In this document: in pieces, positions 3,222 through 40,027 of the stretch
Numbering within the stretch: position 1 is the first letter of the stretch
How the letters are laid out: each line of letters opens with the position of its first letter
NCBI GenBank assembly: GCA_934177795.1
Contig: CAKPPS010000002.1
Span: forward strand, 19,607 to 83,606
DNA from: an uncultured Clostridia bacterium
Lineage (GTDB): Bacteria > Bacillota > Clostridia > TANB77 > CAG-508
DNA: 64,000 bases
Direction: 5' to 3'
Position numbers and translations under genes: made by a program
The notes under the pieces: model-generated
Seen by the model: only the letters and a program-made list of their open reading frames with translations
The model's database searches: none
Told to the model about the DNA's origin: nothing

Positions 3222-3256
3222 CCTCTCAGATAATTCTGGGAGGTTTTATTTTTTAT
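3222..3256 (+). terminator. intrinsic terminator
   Basis: Stem CCTCTCAGA (3222-3230) / TCTGGGAGG (3235-3243) followed by TTTTATTTTTT. Confidence 0.65.
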
Positions 3257-3268
3257 ATTTAAAAAAGC

Positions 3269-3297
3269 TTGCATACTTTATGTGAACATGATATAAT
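3269..3297 (+). promoter_or_regulatory. sigma-A-type promoter for operon 3342-4332
   Basis: TTGCAT (3269-3274), 17-nt spacer, extended -10 TGaTATAAT (3289-3297). Confidence 0.55.
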
Positions 3298-3341
3298 TTT
3301 TACTGTAAATATAAATAGTACTTAAAAAGGAGGACATAACT

Positions 3342-3650
3342 ATGTTAGCTTATTTAAAAACTCGGGAAGGTAAATTAGGACTATTGCCATTCACACTTTA
3401 CAATGCTGATGAAGGAAAAACATCAATTTTTATAGATGGAAAACCTTATCCTAAAAACATTGTAAAATTCAACGAAAAAGTGTGGACTGAGGATTTTCCT
3501 CATGTCAATCAGACTATTCAATTACATTTTTCAAATAGAATTACCAAAAATTCTGGTATTATTCAAAAAGTCGTTCATGCTACTGAACAATTTTGGTTCA
3601 TTGAAACTGTAACAGATGGCATTATTTTAGTGCAGTACATAGGAGAATAA
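3342..3650 (+). CDS. small hypothetical protein (102 aa); weak paralog of 2894-3214
   Basis: AAAGGAGG SD. Ends ...LVQYIGE, compared with ...VVTYIG in the neighbour. Followed 4 nt later by the next CDS. Confidence 0.6.
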   Translation: MLAYLKTREGKLGLLPFTLYNADEGKTSIFIDGKPYPKNIVKFNEKVWTEDFPHVNQTIQLHFSNRITKNSGIIQKVVHATEQFWFIETVTDGIILVQYIGE

Positions 3651-3654
3651 TTTT

Positions 3655-4332
3655 ATGAATACCAAACTTTCATTTCCAAAATTTTCTCAATATCCATATT
3701 ATGAGAGAATAGAAAAAGCGCTTGCATCAAGTATCAATTCTATTTATATTGATGTTGATGTAGCTGCTGACGTAAATATTGATGATGTTTGTGTAAATGT
3801 ATTAACTCACAAACAAAATTACATTGAGATATTTATAGCTGATAACAACTTTAAGAATATTGCTTTTTTGGTGGATCAGTCTGGTAAGGAATTATCAATA
3901 AGAATTCTTTTAGAAAATGGAAATTCAGTAATTGATACTCCTATTGCTATTAATGTGGTGGTCCCTAAAAAGATTTTTACAACATTATCTATTAGTAGTA
4001 GAATTGCAAACATTTTCATTGATGAATTTGTTTATGCAAAAAAAATTAATATTGAAGGAAAATCTTGCAGTGTTTTATCACTAGCTAATTTTTCTAACTT
4101 ATATATTAATACTATTGATGGTAATATTAGAATTGAAACCAAGCTGGTTACTAATACACTAGTAAATATTAGTAGTGAAAATGCTGATATTTATGCACAT
4201 ATCAAAAATATTAGAACTTTTAAGGTTTTACTTTTTAATTTTCCCAAGGTTAAAAATTCGTCTCTTTTAGGAGGTGATTACTCCATCTCTGGAAGTATTT
4301 CTTCTAGAAATGGATTTGTAAAGTTTTGTTAA
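3655..4332 (+). CDS. hypothetical protein, possibly DUF4097-like repetitive beta-structure protein
   Basis: AGGAGA SD. Probably translationally linked to 3342-3650. Repeated short segments (IDGNIRIE, SSENADIYAHI, ISGSISSRNG) resemble the DUF4097 putative-adhesin pattern, by eye only. Confidence 0.55.
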   Translation: MNTKLSFPKFSQYPYYERIEKALASSINSIYIDVDVAADVNIDDVCVNVLTHKQNYIEIFIADNNFKNIAFLVDQSGKELSIRILLENGNSVIDTPIAINVVVPKKIFTTLSISSRIANIFIDEFVYAKKINIEGKSCSVLSLANFSNLYINTIDGNIRIETKLVTNTLVNISSENADIYAHIKNIRTFKVLLFNFPKVKNSSLLGGDYSISGSISSRNGFVKFC

Positions 4333-4334
4333 TA

Positions 4335-4375
4335 AAAAATCATGTCTTTCTATTTCTAGTTAGACATGATTTTTT
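4335..4375. terminator. bidirectional intrinsic terminator
   Basis: Stem AAAAAATCATGTCT (4335-4348) / AGACATGATTTTTT (4362-4375), between convergent genes. Confidence 0.7.
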
Positions 4376-4386
4376 AGTTATATATA

Positions 4387-5310
4387 TTATATCGGTTCTG
4401 TACTGTACCAATAATAATTTCCATTTACATCTTTTTTGAAAATATGTTTATACTCTTTCATATTATTTTGATATTTTGAAACTAAATTATCAGAAGTTTG
4501 TTTAATAGTATTTTCATTCTCTTGTTGCATAATTTGTTTCACATCAACCTTTGAATCAATAACATCCGTTTGTTCAGATGATTTGTATAATATATTAGTA
4601 TTTTCTTCACCATTTTGAATTAAAACCATATATTTATCTTTAATACATATAGTATCATTTTCTTGATATGCTGTCATAATTTTTCTTATATTAGTCAATG
4701 ATCCTGCTGAAGTTCCCCCAATTGAATGTGTATATTTTTCATTTGCATAATTGCATTCTTCACCATATCCAATATCAAAAGATTCATTTTTTATTACTGT
4801 TCCATACATTTGCTTAGCTTTGTTTTGCAATAATGATGCTTTAAATGAATACCATTCAGTATCTGATTCCATTCCATCAATCTTTTCTTTTTCAGAACTA
4901 GCTAATTTAAAATTAGAAAAAGCATAGCCTAATAAGTATTTATTTGAAAGTGAATCTTTTGTCACTTTCTTATTTTGATAAGCATTCACTTCAATTTTAT
5001 TAGTATTCATAGCTGGTATATATTTATATAATAATTGTATTTGCTCAGAATTTATATCAAGTTTTATATCTTTTTCTGTTGAATTTTTTATTTCATTTAC
5101 ACTTTCAGTTTCATTTACAACGGTATTAATGTTATTAACATTTTCCTGTGTATTATTTATTTCTGCATTTAATTCTTCTATTTTACTATTTGCTTGCTTT
5201 TGTTCATTATCAAGATTATATATAAACACTCCCATTATTCCTATAATAAGTATTGCTATAATCAAAAAAAATGTTGATAAACTTATTGTTATATCCTTTT
5301 TTTCATTCAT
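4387..5310 (-). CDS. membrane-anchored hypothetical protein with coiled-coil linker
   Basis: AAGGGGA SD. One N-terminal TM (LSTFFLIIAILIIGIMGVFIY), then a Q/N/E-rich coiled segment and a globular C-terminal part. Confidence 0.65.
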   Translation of the reverse strand: MNEKKDITISLSTFFLIIAILIIGIMGVFIYNLDNEQKQANSKIEELNAEINNTQENVNNINTVVNETESVNEIKNSTEKDIKLDINSEQIQLLYKYIPAMNTNKIEVNAYQNKKVTKDSLSNKYLLGYAFSNFKLASSEKEKIDGMESDTEWYSFKASLLQNKAKQMYGTVIKNESFDIGYGEECNYANEKYTHSIGGTSAGSLTNIRKIMTAYQENDTICIKDKYMVLIQNGEENTNILYKSSEQTDVIDSKVDVKQIMQQENENTIKQTSDNLVSKYQNNMKEYKHIFKKDVNGNYYWYSTEPI

Positions 5311-5983
5311 TATTTTTTTCCCCTTTTCTTTTGTATTTAGATAATGTTTTTATTGACTTCATTATGTCCTATTTGAATACATATTATCCGTTTCTATTAT
5401 ACATTTTTAATTATTTTTTTGCAACTATCACATCAACTCATTTTTACTTTCTCTCACTATAGTTAAATACAGTTTTATACCATCCATTTTCAATAATTTG
5501 ATTGGCATTAGTTTTATTCTACTACACCATCTGTTACTACTTTTTGAGCACCATAAGCATATATCTTTATTTCATAAAAACCTTTCAAAGTTTAATTATA
5601 CTTATATTCTATATATTCTTTTGCACATTTTTTATATACATATTATTTTTTGAACTTGCAATAGTAACCGTTGTCACTATTGCCTTATTTGTAGCTTTAA
5701 TTGTTACAGTAAGAAAATTAGACAATGAAAAAAACACATCTCTGTTGAACCGTTAGAGATGTATTTTTAAATTTAAAATAATAATCGAACGATACGCCAC
5801 ATCTAAAGTGGTATCTCATCTTTCTATAATTATTAGATTTAAAATATATGAAAAAGTCAAATAATTTTCAAAAATTTTTGTAACATTTATTTAAAAATAT
5901 ATATTAATATAAGAAAAGAATAGGTACATATTTTATTAATTGTCATGATTTGATAATAAAATTAATATAACCCACAAAGAAAA

Positions 5984-6241
5984 TTGACTCAAAGATACAC
6001 TAGACTTTTAATAAATGAAATCGGATATTTACCTATAGATAAAAACAGAACTAATTTATTATTTCAAGTATGAAAAAAACTAGTATTTCTACCAGTTTTT
6101 TACTTTTATATAGGTATGTACAATATAAAACCACCTATACAACATATTGAAATTCGTACAACTTCAGTTTGGTGCGTTAGCGGAGGACGTATTCGAAAAA
6201 CCTCACTCACAAAAGCACCTTATTATCCGTTTCAAAATTAG
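5984..6241 (+). pseudogene. degraded IS21-family IstB/DnaC-like ATPase fragment
   Basis: Three short out-of-frame pieces read RLLINEIGYLPIDKNRTNLLFQV*, KKTSISTS and HIEIRTTS. They resemble the IstB Walker-B region (LLIIDE-GYLP...LLFQ) and C-terminal segments. Locally higher GC. No intact ORF. Confidence 0.35.
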
Positions 6242-6355
6242 TTATAGCGATGGTTTGAAAAGAATGTATATACAAATGTGAGTTTTTTCACCATAACTAT
6301 GTTCTTAATTTAACACAATTTTTTATTTTTTGCAAGATTAAAGTTAATATTTTCA

Positions 6356-8026
6356 TTAGCTAATATTCTTGTAAAATCTATTATATTCTTCATTATATTT
6401 TTCATTTCGAGAATCATATTTTAATGCTTTTTCAATATCTGCTTTTGCTTGTTTGAAATTTGACAATCTATAATAAGCTACACTTCTATTATAATAGGCA
6501 AATGGATTATTCTCTTCCATTGATATTGATTTATCAAACTCTTTTATTGCATCATTTAATTTATTTAAAAAAACATAGTTTATGCCCTTGTTTGCATAAA
6601 TTTGTGAATTGTATCCTATTTTATCCTGTAAAACTTCTAGGTCTTTTAAAGCTAAGTTGTATTTTCCAATTCTACAATAGCAATTTGATCTAGAAGATAA
6701 AGAATCACATTCTTTTATTTCATTATTAATGCAATATGTATATTTTTCAATGGCTTCAAAATATTTTTTTTGAATTTCAAGAATTTTTCCTATATAATAT
6801 ATTCCTATTCTATTTAATTCGTCATCATCCAATTCATTATCCACTTCTTTTAATGCTTCCTTATATTTTCCTTCTAAAATAAGTGAATTTATTCTATTTT
6901 CAAAATATAACACCTTTTTATATGGTTTTTCTAAATTTTCAAGATATTTAAAAATTTCTTCATTAGCATTATATATTTCTATTTTTCCATTATTATATTC
7001 TACATCTATATTATATTTATCTTTTATACATTTTTTTATATGTGTTAATAATTCTTCTTTTTCATCATTGCCCATTTTTTGAGGTATTGTATTAGAAGAA
7101 ACTTGTACTATTATATTTAATAATCTTTCTAAATTCATTTCTTCAAAAGATTCCAACATAGGTTTTGGTAGAGTAAAAATAATACTATTCTTTCCTGTTT
7201 TTTCTATTAATAAATCTTGAAAATAGTAATCATATATTTCTGTAATATCCTCAATATTTCCAATATCTATTGTATTATTATTATCTTTCATATATTTCAT
7301 AAATTTATCATTTGAGCTATTAATTATGATTCTTATTTCACTCTGTTGAGAATAATAATTATCTTTTAAAAGTAATTCTTTTGGATATGGTATAGCAGAA
7401 ATTGAAATAACTTTTTTATCGATATACTCAACTGGCGAAATAATTATTTCATCTTCGCTTAGTCCAATTTTCTTTAAGGCATCTCTTACTCTTTCAAATA
7501 ATTTATGAGGATTATTAATAAACATAACAACAGGTTTCTCATTATCCTCTATAGATTCGTAGTCTAATTCTGTGATATTGTTAGAAAAATCCGTAAAATA
7601 ACTATTTTCTACTCTAGATATATAATGTGCCTTTCCATCCTTTTCAATATTTTTTTGTGTGAAACTATTATCTTTTAACCCATAAAAACATATAGAATAT
7701 AATTCTTCTATCTTTTTCCTTCTAAAATATACAAATCCATTTTCATAAAAATGCGTTAGATTGCTATCTTTTTTTAACTTTTTTATAAAATTAGAATTAT
7801 CATTCTCCTTTGCTGAAAGAAATGTCCCTTCTAAAACATCTCCTTGTCCTTTATTGCCATCCTTTTCAATTTGTATCCAATTTTTAGGTTGATTAAAGAA
7901 AATCTTTCCTTTTACAAATGATTCTGTATATTTTCGTTTTGTACATCTAAACAATAATATTGTTGAAAAATTAAAATTGAATACATTTCTAGGCTTGACA
8001 TATGGTGTTATATCTATATAATCCAT
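6356..8026 (-). CDS. protein with uncharacterised ~330-aa N-terminal domain and C-terminal TPR repeats
   Basis: AGGAAGGGA SD before ATG 8026; the track start at 8068 is a GTG inside a palindrome. The C-terminal ~200 aa show repeated A/Y/L TPR-like 34-mers (YYIGKILEIQKKYFEAIEKY, NRSVAYYRLSNFKQAKADIEKALKYD). No Walker A motif seen. Confidence 0.75.
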   Translation of the reverse strand: MDYIDITPYVKPRNVFNFNFSTILLFRCTKRKYTESFVKGKIFFNQPKNWIQIEKDGNKGQGDVLEGTFLSAKENDNSNFIKKLKKDSNLTHFYENGFVYFRRKKIEELYSICFYGLKDNSFTQKNIEKDGKAHYISRVENSYFTDFSNNITELDYESIEDNEKPVVMFINNPHKLFERVRDALKKIGLSEDEIIISPVEYIDKKVISISAIPYPKELLLKDNYYSQQSEIRIIINSSNDKFMKYMKDNNNTIDIGNIEDITEIYDYYFQDLLIEKTGKNSIIFTLPKPMLESFEEMNLERLLNIIVQVSSNTIPQKMGNDEKEELLTHIKKCIKDKYNIDVEYNNGKIEIYNANEEIFKYLENLEKPYKKVLYFENRINSLILEGKYKEALKEVDNELDDDELNRIGIYYIGKILEIQKKYFEAIEKYTYCINNEIKECDSLSSRSNCYCRIGKYNLALKDLEVLQDKIGYNSQIYANKGINYVFLNKLNDAIKEFDKSISMEENNPFAYYNRSVAYYRLSNFKQAKADIEKALKYDSRNEKYNEEYNRFYKNIS

Positions 8027-8060
8027 AATTTTATCCCTTCCTTTAACACTATACCTTACT

Positions 8061-8079
8061 GGTTCCACACTGTGGAACC
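8061..8079. repeat. 19-bp perfect palindrome GGTTCCACA-C-TGTGGAACC, copy 1 (intergenic)
   Basis: Read directly from the sequence. Lies in the 56-nt gap between the DUF1016 stop and the TPR-protein start. GC-rich relative to its context. Confidence 0.9.
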
Positions 8080-8082
8080 ACT

Positions 8083-9111
8083 CTATTTCTTATCTTCAAA
8101 TTCTTCTTTTTGTTTTTCAATTTCCCTTGCTAATTCTTCTTCTGTTGGTAAATATAGTTGATATTTTGACGCAAATAAATTTTTATTATCATTAAGAACA
8201 GAATATTTTACTATTGTATCTTTTTTATCTGAACACAATATAATTCCTATTGTTGGATTATCATCTTCTGCTTTTATTTCATTATCATAATATCTAACAT
8301 AAAAATCCATTTGTCCAATATCTTGATGTGTTAGTTTGTCCAATTTTAAATCAATTAAAACGAAACATTTTAGCACATAATTGTAAAACACTAAATCAAT
8401 ATAAAAATTGTCGCCATCTACATCAATTCTTTTTTGCCTTGCTACAAAAGAAAATCCCCTACCTAATTCTAGTAAAAATTCTGATATATGTTCAAGCAAA
8501 TTAGATTCTAAGTCTTTTTCTAAAAATCTTCTGTCTTTTATATCTAAAAATTCTAAAACATAAGGGTCTTTAATAAAGTCTTGAACTTTCTCCTTTTTCT
8601 CTAAAATATTTATTTCATTTTTTACTTCTTCTTTATGTTCTTCACTTGTTGATAAAAGCCTTTCATAATAAAAACTATTTATTTGCCTTTCTAATTGTCT
8701 AACACTCCAATTTGACTTTATTGTTTCTTCTAAATAAAAATTTCTTTTAGCCTCATTATCTATATTCATTATTAAACGATTATGGCTCCAACTTAACTGG
8801 TTCCACAGTGTGGAACCACCTTTATATGTCAAGTAAAACTTTTTCATTTTCTTTAAACTGGGAACACTAAAACCTTGTCCAAATTCTCGAGTTAACTTTT
8901 CTGAAAACAATTTTAATATTTCATTTTGAGACGCCTCTAAATTATAGTTTTCAATTAATTCATTTATAGTAGAACCTATTTCAAAGTATAGTTCGACCAT
9001 TTCAGAATTAATATTTTTCACAACATTTTGCTTTGTTTTTAATATTAAGTTATTTATTCTATCATAGTAATTTCCAAAGACTTGATTATTTTGTTCTATT
9101 AAATCAGCCAT
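8083..9111 (-). CDS. DUF1016/YhcG-family PD-(D/E)xK nuclease-like protein
   Basis: AGGAGG SD. QLSWSHN motif and C-terminal IDLVFYNYVLKCFVLIDLKLDKLTHQDIGQMDFYVRYYD match the YhcG-type nuclease core as I recall it. Confidence 0.8.
   Translation of the reverse strand: MADLIEQNNQVFGNYYDRINNLILKTKQNVVKNINSEMVELYFEIGSTINELIENYNLEASQNEILKLFSEKLTREFGQGFSVPSLKKMKKFYLTYKGGSTLWNQLSWSHNRLIMNIDNEAKRNFYLEETIKSNWSVRQLERQINSFYYERLLSTSEEHKEEVKNEINILEKKEKVQDFIKDPYVLEFLDIKDRRFLEKDLESNLLEHISEFLLELGRGFSFVARQKRIDVDGDNFYIDLVFYNYVLKCFVLIDLKLDKLTHQDIGQMDFYVRYYDNEIKAEDDNPTIGIILCSDKKDTIVKYSVLNDNKNLFASKYQLYLPTEEELAREIEKQKEEFEDKK
8799..8817. repeat. 19-bp perfect palindrome GGTTCCACA-G-TGTGGAACC, copy 2 (inside the DUF1016 CDS)
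   Basis: Read directly from the sequence. Encodes GGSTLWNQ just before the LSWSH motif. Shares flanking ACT...AC with copy 1. Confidence 0.9.
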
Positions 9112-9124
9112 TCAATACCTCCTA

Positions 9125-9568
9125 TTAATTAATGTATTCTAATATTTTTATTGAATCTAAAGGATATACTTTATTTTCTTCAAGCATTTTCAATGTTCTT
9201 TTTATTCTCTTTTCGTCTCTTAATTCTTTATCTGTCATATTTATTAATTCCTTTTTAGAAATCCATTTTACATCTAAAATTTCTTCTTTATTAAATGAAA
9301 TATTTTCTTCTAATAGTTCTGTTGTAAATGTTATTATTATCAATGTAGTATCTTCTATATCTTTACTCATTATTGGAAGTACATTCTTTAATCTAACTTT
9401 ACACCCAGTTTCTTCAAATATTTCTCTAATAGCACCTTCAAATATTGTTTCTCCATTTTCTAAATGTCCTGCAGGAACATTCCATTTTCCATAACATTTC
9501 TTTTTTGCCTCTTTTACCATTAATATTTTATTGTCTTTTTCAATAATTCCTCCTACAATAATTTCCAT
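9125..9568 (-). CDS. NUDIX hydrolase
   Basis: GGGAGGA SD. Nudix box GHLENGETIFEGAIREIFEETG. Confidence 0.85.
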   Translation of the reverse strand: MEIIVGGIIEKDNKILMVKEAKKKCYGKWNVPAGHLENGETIFEGAIREIFEETGCKVRLKNVLPIMSKDIEDTTLIIITFTTELLEENISFNKEEILDVKWISKKELINMTDKELRDEKRIKRTLKMLEENKVYPLDSIKILEYIN

Positions 9569-9582
9569 TGCAATTTTCCTCC

Positions 9583-10419
9583 CTAGATTTTATCCACATC
9601 TATTCCTAATTTTTTAAAATTCTCGTTAATTTTAGTCATATCTCTATACATACCTTGTTTTAATTCAAATCTGTAATTTTCTTTTTCAATATTCAAATTT
9701 TCATCTTCTAATTCTCTGTCAATATCATAGGGTACTTTTATAAACTGAAATGAAATATAGGACGAATATTCTCTACTTCCGTATTCTCCTTCAATTATTA
9801 GATAATTACTTTTCGTAGTTTCTAACACGTCACTATCTTTATTTTTATTCCTTATAACATCGAAAGCATTTCCTACACTTTCTACATTTATTATAGTTTT
9901 ATTGTATATTTTGTCCATATATGGATGATGAATATGACCATATATTACAACATCTGCAATATCCTGAGATTGCGTATTTTTGCTTGGTAAAAACATTTTA
10001 TATTTTGTTTCAATACTATCAACATTTAATATTGCTTTATTATTAACAGTAGGTGTTGCATGAAATAATCTTACTAAACTTTCACTCATATAAAATTCAT
10101 GGCAAAATGGTAAATTTAATAAATATTCTATATCCTCTTTATTTATTAATGATTTATTCCATTTTATTCTTTTTTGCTCTTGCTCATTCATTTCATCAAT
10201 ATTCTTATGTTCTGTTGAAAAATGAACATCACAGTTCCCTTGTAATACTATTTCGCAGTTTGTTCTTATTAATGATATACATTCTTTAGGATGTACTCCT
10301 TTTGCTATTATATCTCCTAAACATATGATTTTATCTACTTTTCTTTTTTCTATATCTTTTAGAGTTGCTTTTAATGCTTCTAAATTTCCATGTATATCTG
10401 AGATAATTGCTATTTTCAT
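9583..10419 (-). CDS. calcineurin-like metallophosphoesterase (YfcE/PrpE-like) with ~80-aa C-terminal extension
   Basis: Motifs ISDIHGN, LGDIIAKG, GNCD and GHIHHP appear in canonical order. Confidence 0.8.
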   Translation of the reverse strand: MKIAIISDIHGNLEALKATLKDIEKRKVDKIICLGDIIAKGVHPKECISLIRTNCEIVLQGNCDVHFSTEHKNIDEMNEQEQKRIKWNKSLINKEDIEYLLNLPFCHEFYMSESLVRLFHATPTVNNKAILNVDSIETKYKMFLPSKNTQSQDIADVVIYGHIHHPYMDKIYNKTIINVESVGNAFDVIRNKNKDSDVLETTKSNYLIIEGEYGSREYSSYISFQFIKVPYDIDRELEDENLNIEKENYRFELKQGMYRDMTKINENFKKLGIDVDKI

Positions 10420-10442
10420 TATTTTATGACTTCCATTCTATT

Positions 10443-10940
10443 TTATTTTTTGTTTATTATTTTTTCTAAATTATAGTCTATTCCCAAAATATTCTCTTGC
10501 TCATCCACTTTTATATGCAAATTAAAATTGCGATTGTCATCTATTAATCCTTTTATAAGAAATTTATCTAATAATATTATATTCGACAATATTTTTTCCT
10601 TTTTCAACAATTCATCTATATCTATCCACTCTGATGTATTTTCCTCAAACTCCTGTGGTTCTCCTTCATATTCCTTAGAGATAAATGTGTCAAATATAAA
10701 CATCCTATCTGGATATTCTATTGTCATAATTCCTTTATATTTTAAATTTTGTATTTCTATTCCTGTTTCTTCTTTCATTTCTCTTATTGCTGTTTGTTTT
10801 GGGCTTTCTCCTTCCTCAATTTTGCCTCCAGGTATATCGTAATATCCTTCTTTTTTATTACCTTTTTTATATTTTATTACCACTACTTCATTGTCTTTTA
10901 TTAAATAGCATCGTACTGCCTTTCTTATTGGCTTGTCCAT
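10443..10940 (-). CDS. NUDIX hydrolase
   Basis: GGAGAG SD before ATG 10940; the track start at 10955 is a TTG overlapping the SD. Nudix box GGKIEEGESPKQTAIREMKEETG. Confidence 0.85.
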   Translation of the reverse strand: MDKPIRKAVRCYLIKDNEVVVIKYKKGNKKEGYYDIPGGKIEEGESPKQTAIREMKEETGIEIQNLKYKGIMTIEYPDRMFIFDTFISKEYEGEPQEFEENTSEWIDIDELLKKEKILSNIILLDKFLIKGLIDDNRNFNLHIKVDEQENILGIDYNLEKIINKK

Positions 10941-10989
10941 AATATTTCTCTCCAATCCTATATATATTCTGAATCCCTTATATTTTTAA

Positions 10990-11559
10990 TTATATCAATT
11001 CTTCTTTTACATCTAACCAATTATTTACTCTTACTATCCCTTTAGCTTTAAGTTCGTTATCAGTTAATTTTTTATTTCTAAATTCTGTAAATAATAACTT
11101 TTTATCACAATTTTCTAAATTTGATACTCTATCATCAATTCCTATGTCATATTTTATTTTTGTTTTGTCTGTCATAAATATAAAATTATTTGTATCTATA
11201 AAAGGAAGCCAATAATGTAAATACTCAAATTTATTTTTTAAATTAGTAGCTGCATCAATTACATCTTCTTTCCAAATATAAGTTGTAGCAATATAAACAT
11301 CATATTTTTCATTTAATTCTTTGATTACTTCTATACAATTAGGTAATGGCTCAATATAGTCTCCATTATTATTTTTATATAAATTTTTATATTTATATAT
11401 TGTCTTAAATTCTTCCTCTTTTCCTTTTATTAAATCTTGTCTATATTGACTATGTAGTTTGTCAAAATCTACTTTTCCTAAAAATTCTATTAAATAATTT
11501 GAGAAATTCCCTACTACAATAACTTCATCCATATCAATCATAATAGTTTTTTTATCCAT
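10990..11559 (-). CDS. HAD-superfamily 5'(3')-deoxyribonucleotidase (NT5C-like)
   Basis: ACGGAGGA SD. N-terminal IDMDEVI (DxDxV HAD motif I) and overall size typical of the NT5C family. Confidence 0.7.
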   Translation of the reverse strand: MDKKTIMIDMDEVIVVGNFSNYLIEFLGKVDFDKLHSQYRQDLIKGKEEEFKTIYKYKNLYKNNNGDYIEPLPNCIEVIKELNEKYDVYIATTYIWKEDVIDAATNLKNKFEYLHYWLPFIDTNNFIFMTDKTKIKYDIGIDDRVSNLENCDKKLLFTEFRNKKLTDNELKAKGIVRVNNWLDVKEELI

Positions 11560-11712
11560 TCTTATTTTCCTCCGTTTTAAAACTTGCTATTAAAACGTCG
11601 CAAATTTCGTATTTTCCTTATTCATATCATAAAATCCGTATAAAAACAATTATTTCCAGAAATTAATATAAAAGAGATTGCCACTTTTATATATAACAAC
11701 CTCTTTGTATTA

Positions 11713-12885
11713 TTATCTGTTTAAATTTCTATCCTTTTTCTTTGTTTTAGTAATATCTTCTTGAGCTTTCTTCTTTTGTGTTTCAATTTTTATAACTTCT
11801 TTAACTTTTGGTGTATCTTCTAAAATATAATTTGCTATTTTTAGATTTTTTCTATACTTATTTAGCTTAGTAGTACATTCATCTCGCTTTGCTTTATATT
11901 CCTTTATTAAGTTTTCATCTGTGCAATTTCTTAGCTTATTTCTGTATTTTTGCCTTAAATTAGTAACATTTTCAATATCTTTTTCAGTTTGTGAAATATA
12001 GTTTTTTACATCATCTACTGTTTTTATTTTTTCTGTAACAATAAGTCTAATTTCATTAGAATATCGTTACATTTTTCTAACTTCTTGCTTCATTTCTGGA
12101 GATAATGGTTTGTAATTTTCTCGTTTTGGTATTAAACCTAATAAATGAAATAGTAATATAAAAAGTACATCAATTCCACTCATTTTACTAATATCTTTTA
12201 AATTTCCTTTATATTTATAAACTTTATATTTTGTATAATTCTTTTTTGGTCTCATCAATTTATAATATTCATCTTGCACATAACATGGATTTTGAAAAAC
12301 TCTTTCTGCAATATTTTTCGGCAAATACTTTTCTCCTAACTGATACATTCTTACTGCTTTTTTATCATTTATTGAACGAATTGTAGGATATTTTCTATTA
12401 TTATCATCATTTATAACATAGCCTTTTTTATACATTACCTTTTTAAATTGCGAATAGCTTACGCATATTTCCATTGCTTTGTACATAGCTTGTCTCATTA
12501 GATTATATTTGGTTGGCTCACCTCTTTTTTCTGCAAAATATATATTTCTTGGTGTTTTCCCTCTTGGCTTTTCAATAACTGTTAATCCATATTCTCTACA
12601 TAGTTCATCTGATAACTCCCTAAAATGATAATATGCTCCTTTGTTACAATTAAACTTTTTGCCTGTAAACATATTAACTGAATTTACTACAGAATGGTTA
12701 TGATATGTGCCAGTATTAAAATGTGTGGCAACTACTACTTGATATTCACTCCACATCTTTTCTGCTAGTTCTACTCCAATTTTGTGTGCTAATTCTGGCG
12801 AAACTTCTCCTGTTTTAAAACTTTGGTATGCGTGATATGCAACATCTCCTGTAGTCTTATCAAATCTATTTTGTACTGTTACCAT
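11713..12885 (-). pseudogene. MobA/VirD2-type relaxase (PF03432-like), N-terminally truncated and frameshifted
   Basis: ORF 12067-12885 carries HAYQSF...ELAHKIG...VVATHFNTGTYHNHSVVNSVN, a relaxase histidine triad with degenerate residues. A different frame (11713 to about 12060, no start codon) continues with a relaxase-like coiled C-terminal region, VDDVKNYISQTEKDIENVTNLRQKYRNKL... Confidence 0.7.
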
Positions 12886-12960
12886 TTCTTTTAAACATAA
12901 TTAATAAATCAATATAGTACAATTTTTTTTAAAACTCTAAAATGTCAATGTTTTGACTTG

Positions 12961-13263
<303 letters not shown>

Positions 13264-13295
13264 TCAAAAAAAGACCGTTTCTTTTGAAACGGTTT
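13264..13295 (-). terminator. intrinsic terminator of the tRNA pair
   Basis: Stem ACCGTTTC (13274-13281) / GAAACGGT (13286-13293). On the minus strand it is followed by TTTTTTT. Confidence 0.7.
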
Positions 13296-13379
13296 AAGAT
13301 TTTTGTGTTCATCAAAATTTTTGTTATCTTGAAACTAAGTTGTATCAAGACTTTCAAAAAGTTCGATGAAAACTTGCCT

Positions 13380-13465
13380 TGGTGGGCAGGGAAGGATTCG
13401 AACCTTCGTACTCAAATGAGAACAGATTTACAGTCTGCCGCCTTTAGCCACTCGGCCACCTACCC
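13380..13465 (-). tRNA. tRNA-Tyr (GTA)
   Basis: Reverse complement folds as a cloverleaf: GGGTAGG acceptor, anticodon loop CTGTAAA, long variable arm, T-arm GAAGGTTCGAATCCTTC, encoded CCA. Confidence 0.9.
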
Positions 13466-13506: not shown

Positions 13507-13584
13507 TGGTGCTCCCTCAAGGATTCGAACCTTGGACCCACCGGTTATGAGCCGGTTGCTCTGACCAACTGAGCTAAGGGAGCA
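13507..13584 (-). tRNA. tRNA with CAU anticodon (Met, or Ile2 if lysidine-modified)
   Basis: Reverse complement is TGCTCCCTTAGCTCAGTTGGTCAGAGCAACCGGCTCATAACCGGTGGGTCCAAGGTTCGAATCCTTGAGGGAGCACCA. Canonical arms, U1-A72 pair, encoded CCA. Confidence 0.85.
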
Positions 13585-13675: not shown

Positions 13676-14533
13676 CTAATAATTATCCGCACCTTTTCCT
13701 TCTGGTAATGCTGGATATTCTATAACAATTCTTATCTTTGTTATATATCTAATAGCTCTAACTATTTTACTATTTTTAATCTTTTGCCATAAACTTGGTT
13801 TTTTCTCAAATGTAACTGATTGTTCATATTGCTGTTGTTCATTTGCAAGAACTTGTTCTTGGTTTTGAACTTCTTCCTGTTGTTCAACTATATTTTCTTT
13901 TTTGTTTTCTACTGGTGTTGGAATTGATTTTAATGCATCTGCTACTTCTATTCCTATATAACTTAAAGCTTTTGATCTATCTTCAATTCTTTCCATATCT
14001 ATTTCTATATGTAAATTTGATTCTAAATTTGTTACACGAGCATTAAGTAATTTCATTGCATCTTGATAATTTTGAGATTTTTTGCCTCTTGATTTTCCTA
14101 CAATATTTAATGTTTCTATAATATCCTCTGGAAATTCTCCTTCTGCTTCTTTTACTGTGTCTTTCCAATTTTTTTCCTTATTATCTACTGTATTTATTAA
14201 TTCTTTTAATCTACCTGATAATGCAATATTTTGTTCTCTTTGTCTTATTAATTCTTCAATTTTTTTAGTATTTTCTTCAAATTGGTTTGTAGCATATTCT
14301 ACTAATCCATAGGCTGCTTTATATACACTAATAGGGAAATTTTTCTTTTTTGGATATTCTATTAAATATGTTTTTATTGATTCTATTAAATCTTTAAAAT
14401 AAGTATCATCTTCTAATTGAACTATTTGTTTTTTACTTTTAGGATTTATAAGTTTATGTACTTTATCTATATTTGATAATATTTTTTCTTCAGTGATAAC
14501 CATTCTCACATTTACTATGCCAGATCTAGACAT
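13676..14533 (-). CDS. hypothetical coiled-coil protein
   Basis: AAGGAGG SD. Long intact ORF with a Q/E-rich central region. No recognised motif. Confidence 0.6.
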   Translation of the reverse strand: MSRSGIVNVRMVITEEKILSNIDKVHKLINPKSKKQIVQLEDDTYFKDLIESIKTYLIEYPKKKNFPISVYKAAYGLVEYATNQFEENTKKIEELIRQREQNIALSGRLKELINTVDNKEKNWKDTVKEAEGEFPEDIIETLNIVGKSRGKKSQNYQDAMKLLNARVTNLESNLHIEIDMERIEDRSKALSYIGIEVADALKSIPTPVENKKENIVEQQEEVQNQEQVLANEQQQYEQSVTFEKKPSLWQKIKNSKIVRAIRYITKIRIVIEYPALPEGKGADNY

Positions 14534-39699: not shown

Positions 39700-39875
39700 T
39701 ATTATTTTTGGAATTGAAGATATGCAAAATAAAACTTATATGTATTATCTTTTGTTGTAATATCACTACTACTCTTTGAAATAATACTAATGATTATAAG
39801 TAAACCATCAAGGCATCCGCCGAATATTTCGATAACCTTGAACCTCGTCAACATATAAATGTCCTGGCGCTAATA
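39700..39875 (-). ncRNA. glmS ribozyme (GlcN6P-dependent self-cleaving leader)
   Basis: Minus strand reads AGCGCCAGGAC...GACGAGG...GGTTATCGAAATATTCGGCGGATGCC, the conserved core. The 3' boundary is approximate. Confidence 0.85.
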
Positions 39876-40027
39876 TTAAATTGTCTACTCCTTTCTTTAT
39901 ATTTTTTGCATAAATTCAATTTACTATATTATATTACATTAATACAAAAAAATAAGCAAGTACTTATTTAAATTTTTCAAAAAAAGTATTTTTAAAACAA
40001 TAAATTATTATAAATTAACTTCAAAAA

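Follow-up and report, generated by a model that had tools for sequence, protein, structure and literature searches.

The locus described here raises the question of whether six adjacent genes, at positions 6356 to 11559 of a 64,000-nt stretch of DNA from an uncultured Clostridia bacterium, form one antiphage system or are separate pieces of cargo. The whole 64,000-nt stretch is called the window, all coordinates without a prefix are window positions, and L numbers denote the homologous or sister loci with which it was compared. The six genes encode an NT5C-type deoxyribonucleotidase, two Nudix hydrolases (NUDIX-A and NUDIX-B), a calcineurin-like metallophosphoesterase (MPE), a YhcG/DUF1016 nuclease, and a tetratricopeptide repeat (TPR) protein. 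A first-pass annotation had proposed either one nucleotide-depleting or nucleotide-sanitizing defense module or the house-cleaning cargo of a dead mobile element. We conclude, with a probability of roughly 0.7, that the block is the cargo half of an immobilized integrative mobilizable element (IME) of ~7.2 kb (~6170 to 13380), located 3′ of a tRNA-Tyr gene, and that it consists of three separate modules: a battery of four nucleotide hydrolases, the YhcG gene as an anchor, and a variable cassette slot filled here by the TPR gene.

The element was delimited by comparison with its sister loci. Homology to sister elements begins within the final 25 nt of the tRNA gene, and the conserved left end is 93 to 96% identical (blastn) to L020 (positions 938 to 1456), L115, and L118. 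In those three loci the left end is followed by ~3 kb encoding Resolvase/Recombinase, TnpV, NikA, and the 5′ end of the relaxase gene, all of which are missing in the window. Because the window segment from 12885 to 13404 matches the segment upstream of the recombinase in sister loci, ~3 kb (the recombinase, TnpV, and NikA genes and the first 66 relaxase codons) has been deleted from the window copy, with the junction at ~12885 to 12890. What is left of the relaxase is 92% identical to the intact L019 relaxase over residues 67 to 457 (tblastn) and contains an internal stop. From 12890 to 8060 the window is 98.8 to 98.9% identical to L115, L118, and L119, which carry Resolvase and Recombinase domains, TnpV, NikA, and a 457-aa relaxase upstream. 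The conserved right end shares 80 to 89% identity with the sequence after the slot in L019, L115, L118, L031, L032, and L065; sister-locus homology ceases after ...GCACCA, beyond which all loci diverge. The element therefore ends, as expected of an IME, at a tRNA integration site with a repeated att core, namely, the tRNA-Tyr 3′ end and CGCTAACGCACCA at the far end. Resolvase and Recombinase are present in L020 to L022, L031, L032, L065, and L115 to L122 and absent from the window, so the window copy is a remnant and not a functional IME. Sister copies contain the relaxase and NikA genes and no type IV secretion system genes within the element, and in both L118 and L031 an intact copy is located at this same tRNA-Met/tRNA-Tyr locus. 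The first-pass annotation had placed the block on a dead mobile element, as accessory DNA between a decayed relaxase with two tRNA genes on one side and IS21 debris on the other, and the comparison bears this out. The debris lies outside the element and is presumably from IstB, the IS21 helper, its peptide having been recognized by the IstB motif and not by a hidden Markov model.

The cargo regions of the sister loci show which parts of the block belong together. In L019 to L022, the context of a 92% relative, the order is Resolvase/Recombinase, TnpV, NikA, 457-aa relaxase, NT5C, NUDIX, MPE, NUDIX, an HD protein, YhcG, 753-aa and 199-aa proteins, NUDIX, and then core genes. The backbone of L115 to L122 has the same mobilization genes followed by NT5C, a 165-aa NUDIX, a 278-aa MPE, a 147-aa NUDIX, a 342-aa YhcG, a 56-nt spacer, and the slot content. 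Homology between the window and L115, L118, and L119 breaks off at 8060 or 8057 and restarts at 6336 (blastn). Between these sharp, conserved flanks we found at least five different contents. A Gabija system (GajA, 4e-166, and GajB, 3e-87) occupies the slot in L115 to L117 and L119 to L122, a 799-aa Ppl-like ATPase (5e-29) in L118, and HamA with a ResIII/DEAD helicase (Hachiman) in L126, where the order is relaxase, YhcG, HamA, and helicase. The 753-aa and 199-aa proteins of L019 follow a divergent YhcG allele (38% identity). In L124 and L125 the order is relaxase, GNAT, SDR, serine hydrolase, a 116-aa protein, YhcG, and a 445-aa protein. With its conserved flanks, its high turnover of content, and known defense systems (Gabija, Hachiman, and the Ppl-like ATPase) among its occupants, the slot fits the definition of a mobile genetic element defense hot spot as applied to P2 and P4 (PMC9122126); it turns over by recombination and carries antiphage systems.

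This turnover bears directly on the proposal that the six genes are one defense system, in which the TPR protein would be a sensor that activates or cooperates with YhcG and four nucleotide-depleting hydrolases. The co-directional spacing is tight, there is no strong internal terminator, YhcG and NUDIX match the PADLOC candidates PDC-S02 and PDC-S07, and L029, L001, and L002 preserve the order exactly, with all six genes or with five of them. However, the TPR gene is swapped for Gabija, the Ppl-like ATPase, or other cargo in backbones that are 98.8% identical, and TPR homologues at 62% identity or less never occur with the other five genes, so the co-occurrence in the same order in unrelated genomes that would be expected of a single system was not observed. 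Membership of the battery also varies freely, its hydrolases have no regulatory domains, and L126 combines YhcG with a defense system without any hydrolase. The single nucleotide-depleting defense module of the first-pass annotation is thus largely refuted by synteny, and we consider it extremely improbable. Its defense theme holds for the slot, which houses Gabija or Hachiman in sister elements and from which the hydrolases are separate. A TPR sensor in defense survives for the last gene alone, and house-cleaning cargo is the better description of the four hydrolases.

The six minus-strand open reading frames (ORFs) are intact and co-directional (Table 1). The gaps from the NT5C gene to the TPR gene are 49, 23, 14, 13, and 56 nt, and each gene start is preceded by a purine-rich Shine-Dalgarno sequence, in agreement with the first-pass annotation. 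The NUDIX-A start was taken as the ATG at 10940 behind GGAG, as called in sister loci; the TTG at 10955 given by the ORF lister would yield 170 aa. The TPR ORF reaches 8068 if extended to a GTG. The Pfam domain calls for all six proteins exceed their gathering scores, so that the original domain calls stand, including that of an unmatched N-terminal domain (N-domain) preceding the TPRs. For NT5C the gathering score is 24.8 bits (PF06941), and HAD motif I (DMDEV, residues 9 to 13) is intact. NUDIX-A and NUDIX-B score 69.3 and 73.3 bits against a gathering score of 21.1 (PF00293) and have complete Nudix boxes (GKIEEGESPKQTAIREMKEETGI and GHLENGETIFEGAIREIFEETGC) by the criterion GX5EX7REUXEEXGU. 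The gathering score for the MPE (Metallophos_2) is 27 bits, and the metal motifs DxH, GD, GNCD, and GHxH are all present. YhcG scores 199.7 bits for YhcG_C and 134.6 bits for DUF1016_N and retains the nuclease motif D...D-x-K (D...IDLK). None of the hydrolases reaches an NCBIfam equivalog cutoff: NUDIX-A is below both MutT models (68.5 bits versus 148 for NF008044 and 62.4 versus 97.9 for TIGR00586), and the MPE scores 52.5 bits against the YfcE model TIGR00040, whose cutoff is 56.25. The block matches no multigene system in PADLOC, only the single-gene candidates PDC-S02 (YhcG) and PDC-S07 (both NUDIX proteins, 1e-18 to 1e-22), in keeping with the earlier remark that the combination was not recognized as a named system; NT5C and the TPR protein have no PADLOC match. 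Rfam found no structured RNA within the block. The ratios of nonsynonymous to synonymous substitution (dN/dS) are 0.13 to 0.27 for the MPE gene, 0.27 for NUDIX-B, and 0.14 to 0.32 for the TPR gene; with values of 0.13 to 0.32, the cargo genes, which are full length, are under purifying selection and are functional, not debris. Co-transcription of the six genes is plausible.

Table 1. Coordinates of the six-gene block, the carrier element, and its flanks in the window
Feature	Position	Strand	Details
tRNA-Met(cat)	13507-13583	-	ARAGORN, Rfam
tRNA-Tyr(gta)	13380-13465	-	ARAGORN, Rfam; element integrated directly 3′ (attL side)
Left end of element, conserved	12885-13379	-	Includes small ORF 12961-13254, counterpart of an 88-aa ORF in sister loci
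Relaxase remnant, MobA/VirD2 type	11716-12888	-	Residues 67-457 of 457; Pfam Relaxase 2e-31; ORF 12067-12885
Terminator-like hairpin between relaxase remnant and NT5C gene	11671-11706	-	Consensus scan; predicted
NT5C-type HAD 5′(3′)-deoxyribonucleotidase	10990-11559	-	189 aa; Pfam NT5C 3.6e-16, 60 bits; PDB 3bwv 2e-13
NUDIX-A, MutT-like Nudix hydrolase	10443-10940	-	165 aa; Pfam NUDIX 4e-19; PDB MutT proteins 1.5e-12; PADLOC PDC-S07 8.5e-22
MPE, calcineurin-like metallophosphoesterase, YfcE/SapH-like	9583-10419	-	278 aa; Pfam Metallophos_2 2e-18, 67 bits; PDB 3rqz 2e-12, 3qfm 6e-11
NUDIX-B, NudJ/NUDT18-like	9125-9568	-	147 aa; Pfam NUDIX 2.5e-20; PDB 3id9, 3dku
YhcG/DUF1016 PD-(D/E)xK nuclease	8083-9111	-	342 aa; Pfam YhcG_C 3e-59, DUF1016_N 3e-39; PADLOC PDC-S02 3e-129
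Palindrome, inner copy, 21 nt	8798-8818	.	Within YhcG coding sequence, codons GGSTLWNQ
Palindrome, outer copy, 21 nt	8060-8080	.	2 nt past YhcG stop; left slot boundary
Variable cassette slot	6337-8059	-	Boundaries by blastn; here TPR gene and its ribosome-binding site only
TPR protein	6356-8026	-	556 aa from ATG; TPR_2 2e-14, 53 bits; N-domain codons 1-~375 (6902-8026), TPRs 6356-6901
Right end of element, conserved, 168 bp	6169-6336	-	Finishes with tRNA-3′-end-like CGCTAACGCACCA (6170-6182), attR-like
IS21 IstB fragment, outside element	~5966-6070	+	Six-frame translation, Walker-B-like peptide LLINEIGYLPIDKNRTNLLFQV; IstB assignment presumptive

The upstream boundary of the slot is formed by the YhcG gene and a palindrome. 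YhcG is kept in place in most family variants that have a complete cargo region, and its sequence varies; L123, with 82% relaxase identity, is without it. It directly precedes differing cargo in L019, L115, L118, L124, and L126 and is thus the conserved anchor gene upstream of the slot. DUF1016 genes are enriched beside restriction-modification (RM) and BREX loci (PMC9881135). The palindrome, TGGTTCCACA(S)TGTGGAACCA with S being C or G, is perfect and GC-rich and occurs in two copies in a genome of 24% GC, where none is expected by chance. The copies share ~30 nt of flanking similarity, and both accompany this YhcG allele in L002 and L061. As RNA, the outer copy is predicted to form a hairpin of −14.4 kcal/mol; a terminator was considered and rejected, as the stem is strong but there is no U-tract. 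The outer copy coincides exactly with the breakpoint of cassette exchange. The palindrome might serve for recombination or be recognized by YhcG, and either it or YhcG itself may have a role in the exchange.

The slot gene of the window encodes a protein whose C-terminal third is a TPR solenoid and whose first ~375 aa form a mixed alpha/beta domain in the AlphaFold model. The AlphaFold2 models are confident, with a predicted local distance difference test score of 93 over the full length and 92 over residues 1 to 375. A whole-protein Foldseek search matched TPRs only, and the N-domain was then modeled alone. The N-domain belongs to no Pfam family and has no sequence match in PDB, even by profiles or via 47 distant members; the best fold matches were at an E value of 0.33 (TM score < 0.21) in PDB and 0.34 in BFVD. 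An exact-sequence lookup of the TPR protein found no record. At 90% identity the family falls into ~60 clusters, every one of them from assemblies of gut-type Clostridia or Bacilli; some members, of ~365 aa, have no TPRs (effector-only forms). A profile search of 1.84 billion representatives returned 444 relatives (counted at 50% identity), 140 of them at E ≤ 1e-30, and many of the 444 are stand-alone proteins of 270 to 290 aa that span the first ~275 residues. Conserved across this wider family, in window numbering, are G40, D63, E66, C113, E217, K221, E230, and R232; judged from sequence conservation, this charged cluster suggests that the N-domain is an enzyme. An ADP-ribosyltransferase had been considered on account of R102, S197, Q228-x-E230, and a weak DarT match (E = 2.3) and was dropped, R102 and S197 being unconserved in the wider family. 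Kinship with DUF2971, considered for a motif resemblance, was also rejected (only 2 of 17 members of the family gave a match, at E = 0.13, and none of the 47 distant ones did).

A scan of one genome per species yielded 11 loci with TPR homologues. When the six window proteins were searched against them by tblastn, YhcG adjoined the TPR gene in just two copies, L001 and L002 (99% identity); L004 (87%) starts with the 3′ end of YhcG, and around homologues of 62% identity or less none of the other five genes lies within 10 kb. The homologue in L012 is near a tyrosine integrase and Mob_Pre, followed by GmrSD, HEPN, a HaeIII RM system, and AbiJ. A DpnII-like RM cassette is directly upstream in L006, and L010 has an Abi_2-like gene and a Mob relaxase nearby. 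In L013 to L015 a DUF6602 protein (7014 to 7832 in L013), a NucC-like endonuclease in PADLOC (1e-17), is directly upstream. The member in L016 to L018 is near a serine recombinase and RhuM, in an element that splits ahpC. The family is thus carried as single-gene cargo in the company of recombinase, Mob, and defense genes, and by position and neighborhood the TPR protein is a credible candidate for a new defense gene. Detection of a phage or foreign protein would most likely be the task of the C-terminal TPRs, with the N-terminal alpha/beta domain as the effector. Further defense candidates by position are the L019 pair of overlapping or adjacent genes (753 and 199 aa; 10283 to 13145), the 445-aa protein of L124 (7169 to 8506), and a 116-aa protein of L061 (12206 to 12556), none of which has a match in Pfam, PADLOC, or PHROG.

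Two side observations concern the TPR family. In two contexts that are unrelated to each other, its neighbor is a PD-(D/E)xK-type nuclease: YhcG in the window and the NucC-like protein in L013 to L015. The element in L016 to L018 (~3230 to 12545) contains an N-domain-only member, a radical SAM/SPASM protein, a TehB-like methyltransferase, two His_Phos_1 genes, the serine recombinase, and RhuM; it apparently lies within ahpC, with a 53-aa AhpC fragment upstream and a 191-aa AhpC downstream.

The second module, the hydrolase battery, differs in composition from element to element. L029 equals the window, and L065, the most divergent backbone, has NT5C-NUDIX-MPE-NUDIX-HD-YhcG. L031 and L032 are without NT5C and NUDIX-A, and L061 and L030 have only MPE and YhcG beside a tRNA. 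An HD gene (255 to 258 aa) is located between NUDIX-B and YhcG in L001, L002, L019 to L022, L031, L032, and L065 and is absent in the window, L029, and L115 to L122, with the presence/absence junction at ~9123 to 9135. Relatives with a 77 to 82% identical relaxase have GNAT, SDR, and serine hydrolase genes, MBL and cupin genes, or nothing in the battery position; the battery is specific to one element lineage. Along the block (9101 to 12890), synonymous divergence between the window and L019 climbs from 0.02 in NT5C through 0.06 in NUDIX-A and 0.135 in MPE to 0.37 in NUDIX-B, a rise that places recombination breakpoints inside the battery. There are more than 1,950 MPE homologues, and those at 45 to 94% identity mostly have no battery gene nearby. 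An MPE orthologue at 54% identity lies between typA and tyrS in L057, a core-like chromosomal setting of the kind raised in the first-pass annotation. In plasmid and phage collections, MPE relatives are at 40% identity or less and in unrelated contexts (ars operons or single chromosomal genes), and NT5C finds distant Bacillus-phage YorS-type proteins only, with no T5 match. L039 and L088 (9480 to 10837) have a small PDDEXK_5-type endonuclease directly upstream of the MPE gene, and the same small nuclease is present in L002 (7037 to 7477). Their locus is apparently the same tRNA-adjacent chromosomal site, L039 having a homologue of the window ORF at 13676 to 14533, and looks like a further-reduced island remnant.

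The battery members are single-domain enzymes without sensor or regulatory domains. The closest characterized relatives are MutT for NUDIX-A; NudJ/YmfB, NUDT18, and unnamed MutT/NUDIX structures (best, 3id9) for NUDIX-B; and a staphylococcal deoxyribonucleotidase and, distantly, SPbeta YorS for NT5C. The MPE has the structural relatives 3rqz and 3qfm; the latter, labeled an uncharacterized protein in the database, we take to be pneumococcal SapH, an Ap4A hydrolase/phosphodiesterase. By these similarities, (d)NMP would be produced from (d)NTP or NDP-X by the NUDIX enzymes, conversion of dNMP to the nucleoside would fall to NT5C, and dinucleoside polyphosphates or other phosphodiesters would be cleaved by the MPE. 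The battery, probably of a constitutive type, would then be a relay that degrades noncanonical or toxic nucleotides, joined in some copies by the HD protein. House-cleaning or antimetabolite detoxification, as opposed to regulated nucleotide depletion, is accordingly our first-ranked reading, although we give it slightly less than even odds; the battery appears to be captured housekeeping-type cargo, and the fact that an immobile remnant has kept it speaks for an advantage to the host.

Ranked second is the possibility that the battery is an anti-defense arsenal whose various phosphohydrolase chemistries would break down nucleotide immune signals or their precursors (candidates are cyclic oligonucleotides, cyclic nucleoside monophosphates, ADP-ribose-derived signals, dITP/dAMP, and chain-terminator nucleotides) and so help the element to establish itself in a new host. 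It draws on a second IME type (L023 to L025 and L112 to L114; ~2500 to 8100 in L112) with a tyrosine integrase and a relaxase that is only 35% identical, so that hydrolase batteries occur on two different IME backbones. The second battery is a fixed array of three NUDIX genes, an RNase Z/Apyc1-like MBL, HAD, a 50-aa ORF, an MPE (84% identical to that of the window), PHP, and a 104-aa ORF, and in L113 it stands between GAPS4 and an Mrr_cat/nSTAND1 protein. Its MBL, as represented in L023 of this sister battery, matches Apyc1 entries in PDB at 5e-6 (7t28) and 6e-3 but RNase Z at 9e-9, and it scores 22.7 bits against the anti-Pycsar Apyc1 family PF23023, below the gathering score of 50. The window battery is directly downstream of the relaxase, and the HAD dNMP phosphatase Dmp of phage T5 has been proven to counteract Kongming (bioRxiv 10.1101/2024.12.20.629578). 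However, no battery member reaches the threshold of a curated anti-defense family, and the closest characterized relatives of the window enzymes (MutT, NudJ, the 3qfm and 3rqz MPEs, and a deoxyribonucleotidase) are of house-cleaning types. Related elements place GNAT, SDR, and esterase-type enzymes in the same position, which looks like general detoxification cargo, and the window battery is under purifying selection in an immobile remnant, where aiding transfer is worthless. Nothing applicable was found in the literature on Nudix proteins in plasmid leading regions or in Thoeris counter-defense. We regard an anti-defense role as unlikely.

Less likely still is a third reading, in which the Nudix and HD hydrolases regulate the transfer of their own element. 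Integrative elements of actinomycetes, which are conjugative, have long been known often to carry a Nudix gene (Pif) and an mdp-nud-xre (HD-Nudix-xre) cluster, and Pif of pSAM2 confers conjugal immunity that prevents redundant transfer (PMC3218068). The battery adjoins mobilization genes here, and Nudix and HD phosphohydrolases recur in both cases on integrative, conjugation-dependent elements. The actinomycete elements are of another phylum and type, however, whereas the batteries described here have up to five hydrolases, including NT5C and MPE, and no xre or other accompanying regulator gene. Many IMEs of the same family are without the battery, which is hence dispensable for the life cycle, and it persists in immobile remnants (the window and L061); we therefore consider transfer control very unlikely, and house-cleaning or detoxification remains the preferred reading of the battery.

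The slot and its carrier can be set beside several known systems. P2 phages and P4 satellites have defense hot spots between conserved anchor genes (Rousset et al. 2022, PMC9122126). The slot resembles them in its size (1.7 to 3 kb), its sharp conserved flanks, the turnover of content in near-identical elements, and the presence of known antiphage systems (here Gabija and Hachiman); it differs in that its carrier is a gut-Clostridia IME and its upstream anchor is a YhcG gene with a 21-nt palindrome. Tn4451 and Tn4453 are mobilizable transposons with the large serine recombinase TnpX, TnpV, and a Mob protein, and their cargo is catP. The element shares with them, and with tRNA-targeting IMEs of Firmicutes, a large serine recombinase, TnpV, a relaxase, the lack of a conjugation apparatus, and a size of 7 to 13 kb. 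Unlike Tn4451 and Tn4453, it has a MobA/VirD2 relaxase with NikA (not TnpZ/Mob_Pre), is inserted 3′ of a tRNA gene, and carries hydrolase and defense cargo, and its window copy is nonmobile. The matches of YhcG to PDC-S02 and of both NUDIX proteins to PDC-S07 link the block to those candidates; both are neighborhood derived, however, the PDC-S07 model matches generic Nudix folds, and the Nudix genes here behave as enzyme cargo, not as slot occupants. Single-protein sensor-effector defense genes with repeat sensors include TPR- or STAND-type Avs-like proteins. Like these, the TPR protein has an N-terminal putative effector and C-terminal TPRs and is found in mobile element or defense island slots; unlike them, it has no NTPase domain, and its N-domain is without a relative in Pfam, PADLOC, PDB, or BFVD. 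In the searched literature neither this element family nor its hot spot was described, and papers on serine recombinases as defense markers made no mention of DUF1016, Nudix, TnpV, or relaxases. The architecture of enzyme cargo, YhcG anchor, and defense slot appears to be undescribed.

Several points count against the three-module account as we present it. The sampling of sister loci is biased to long contigs from human-gut assemblies. A recurrent, cohesive battery near immune genes, as on the second IME type, fits the degradation of anti-phage immune signals at least as well as house-cleaning. The substrates proposed for the hydrolases come from family-level similarity (68 versus 148 bits for NUDIX-A and MutT and 52.5 versus 56.25 for the MPE and YfcE). 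A defense role of the TPR protein is supported by position and neighborhood only, with no PADLOC match, and some slot occupants, the 116-aa protein of L061 and the 753-aa and 199-aa pair of L019, have no defense annotation.

Additional observations concern the element family and the surrounding DNA. The IME family is found directly 3′ of at least three tRNA genes: tRNA-Leu (L020 to L022, L115, and L119), tRNA-Tyr (L118, L031, and the window), and tRNA-Phe (L065). A target range of several tRNA genes is unusual for a large-serine-recombinase element. The right end (6169 to 6336) is conserved across elements with entirely different slots and might contain a promoter, a terminator, or a recombinase-binding site. 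An NT5C protein identical to that of the window is present in 2,376 collection blocks, most commonly in the context of L115 to L122, and intact sister copies of the element, which is common in human-gut Clostridia, are very frequent in gut metagenomes. To the left of the element are genes for a 463-aa Peptidase_C39-like and SH3 protein (1349 to 2740) and a 307-aa protein (4387 to 5310) that matches no Pfam family and has a membrane helix at its N terminus. A 613-aa ORF is preceded by a glmS ribozyme at 39732 to 39882 (Rfam, 88.9 bits), which is a common feature of chromosomes and shows that the window is chromosomal.

Separating the four nucleotide hydrolases from the defense slot avoids a false lead and raises the question of why IMEs repeatedly assemble batteries of nucleotide phosphohydrolases. 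A wider proposal, which we hold tentatively and think somewhat doubtful as a whole, is that the TPR protein founds a single-gene antiphage family with a TPR sensor and an unmatched effector, that YhcG with its 3′ palindromic hairpin anchors an undescribed hot spot on abundant gut-Clostridia IMEs and may be a recombination site, and that multihydrolase batteries could destroy nucleotide immune signals broadly. Work on defense hot spots anchored by conserved genes has been fruitful for the discovery of immune systems, but such hot spots have been described mainly for phages, satellites, and proteobacterial islands. The hot spot presented here has nucleotide-precise slot boundaries, and the mobilizable element that carries it is very abundant in uncultured human-gut Clostridia. 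It provides a short, testable list of candidate defense genes: the TPR family (~440 representatives at 50% identity), the 753-aa and 199-aa pair, and the 445-aa protein.

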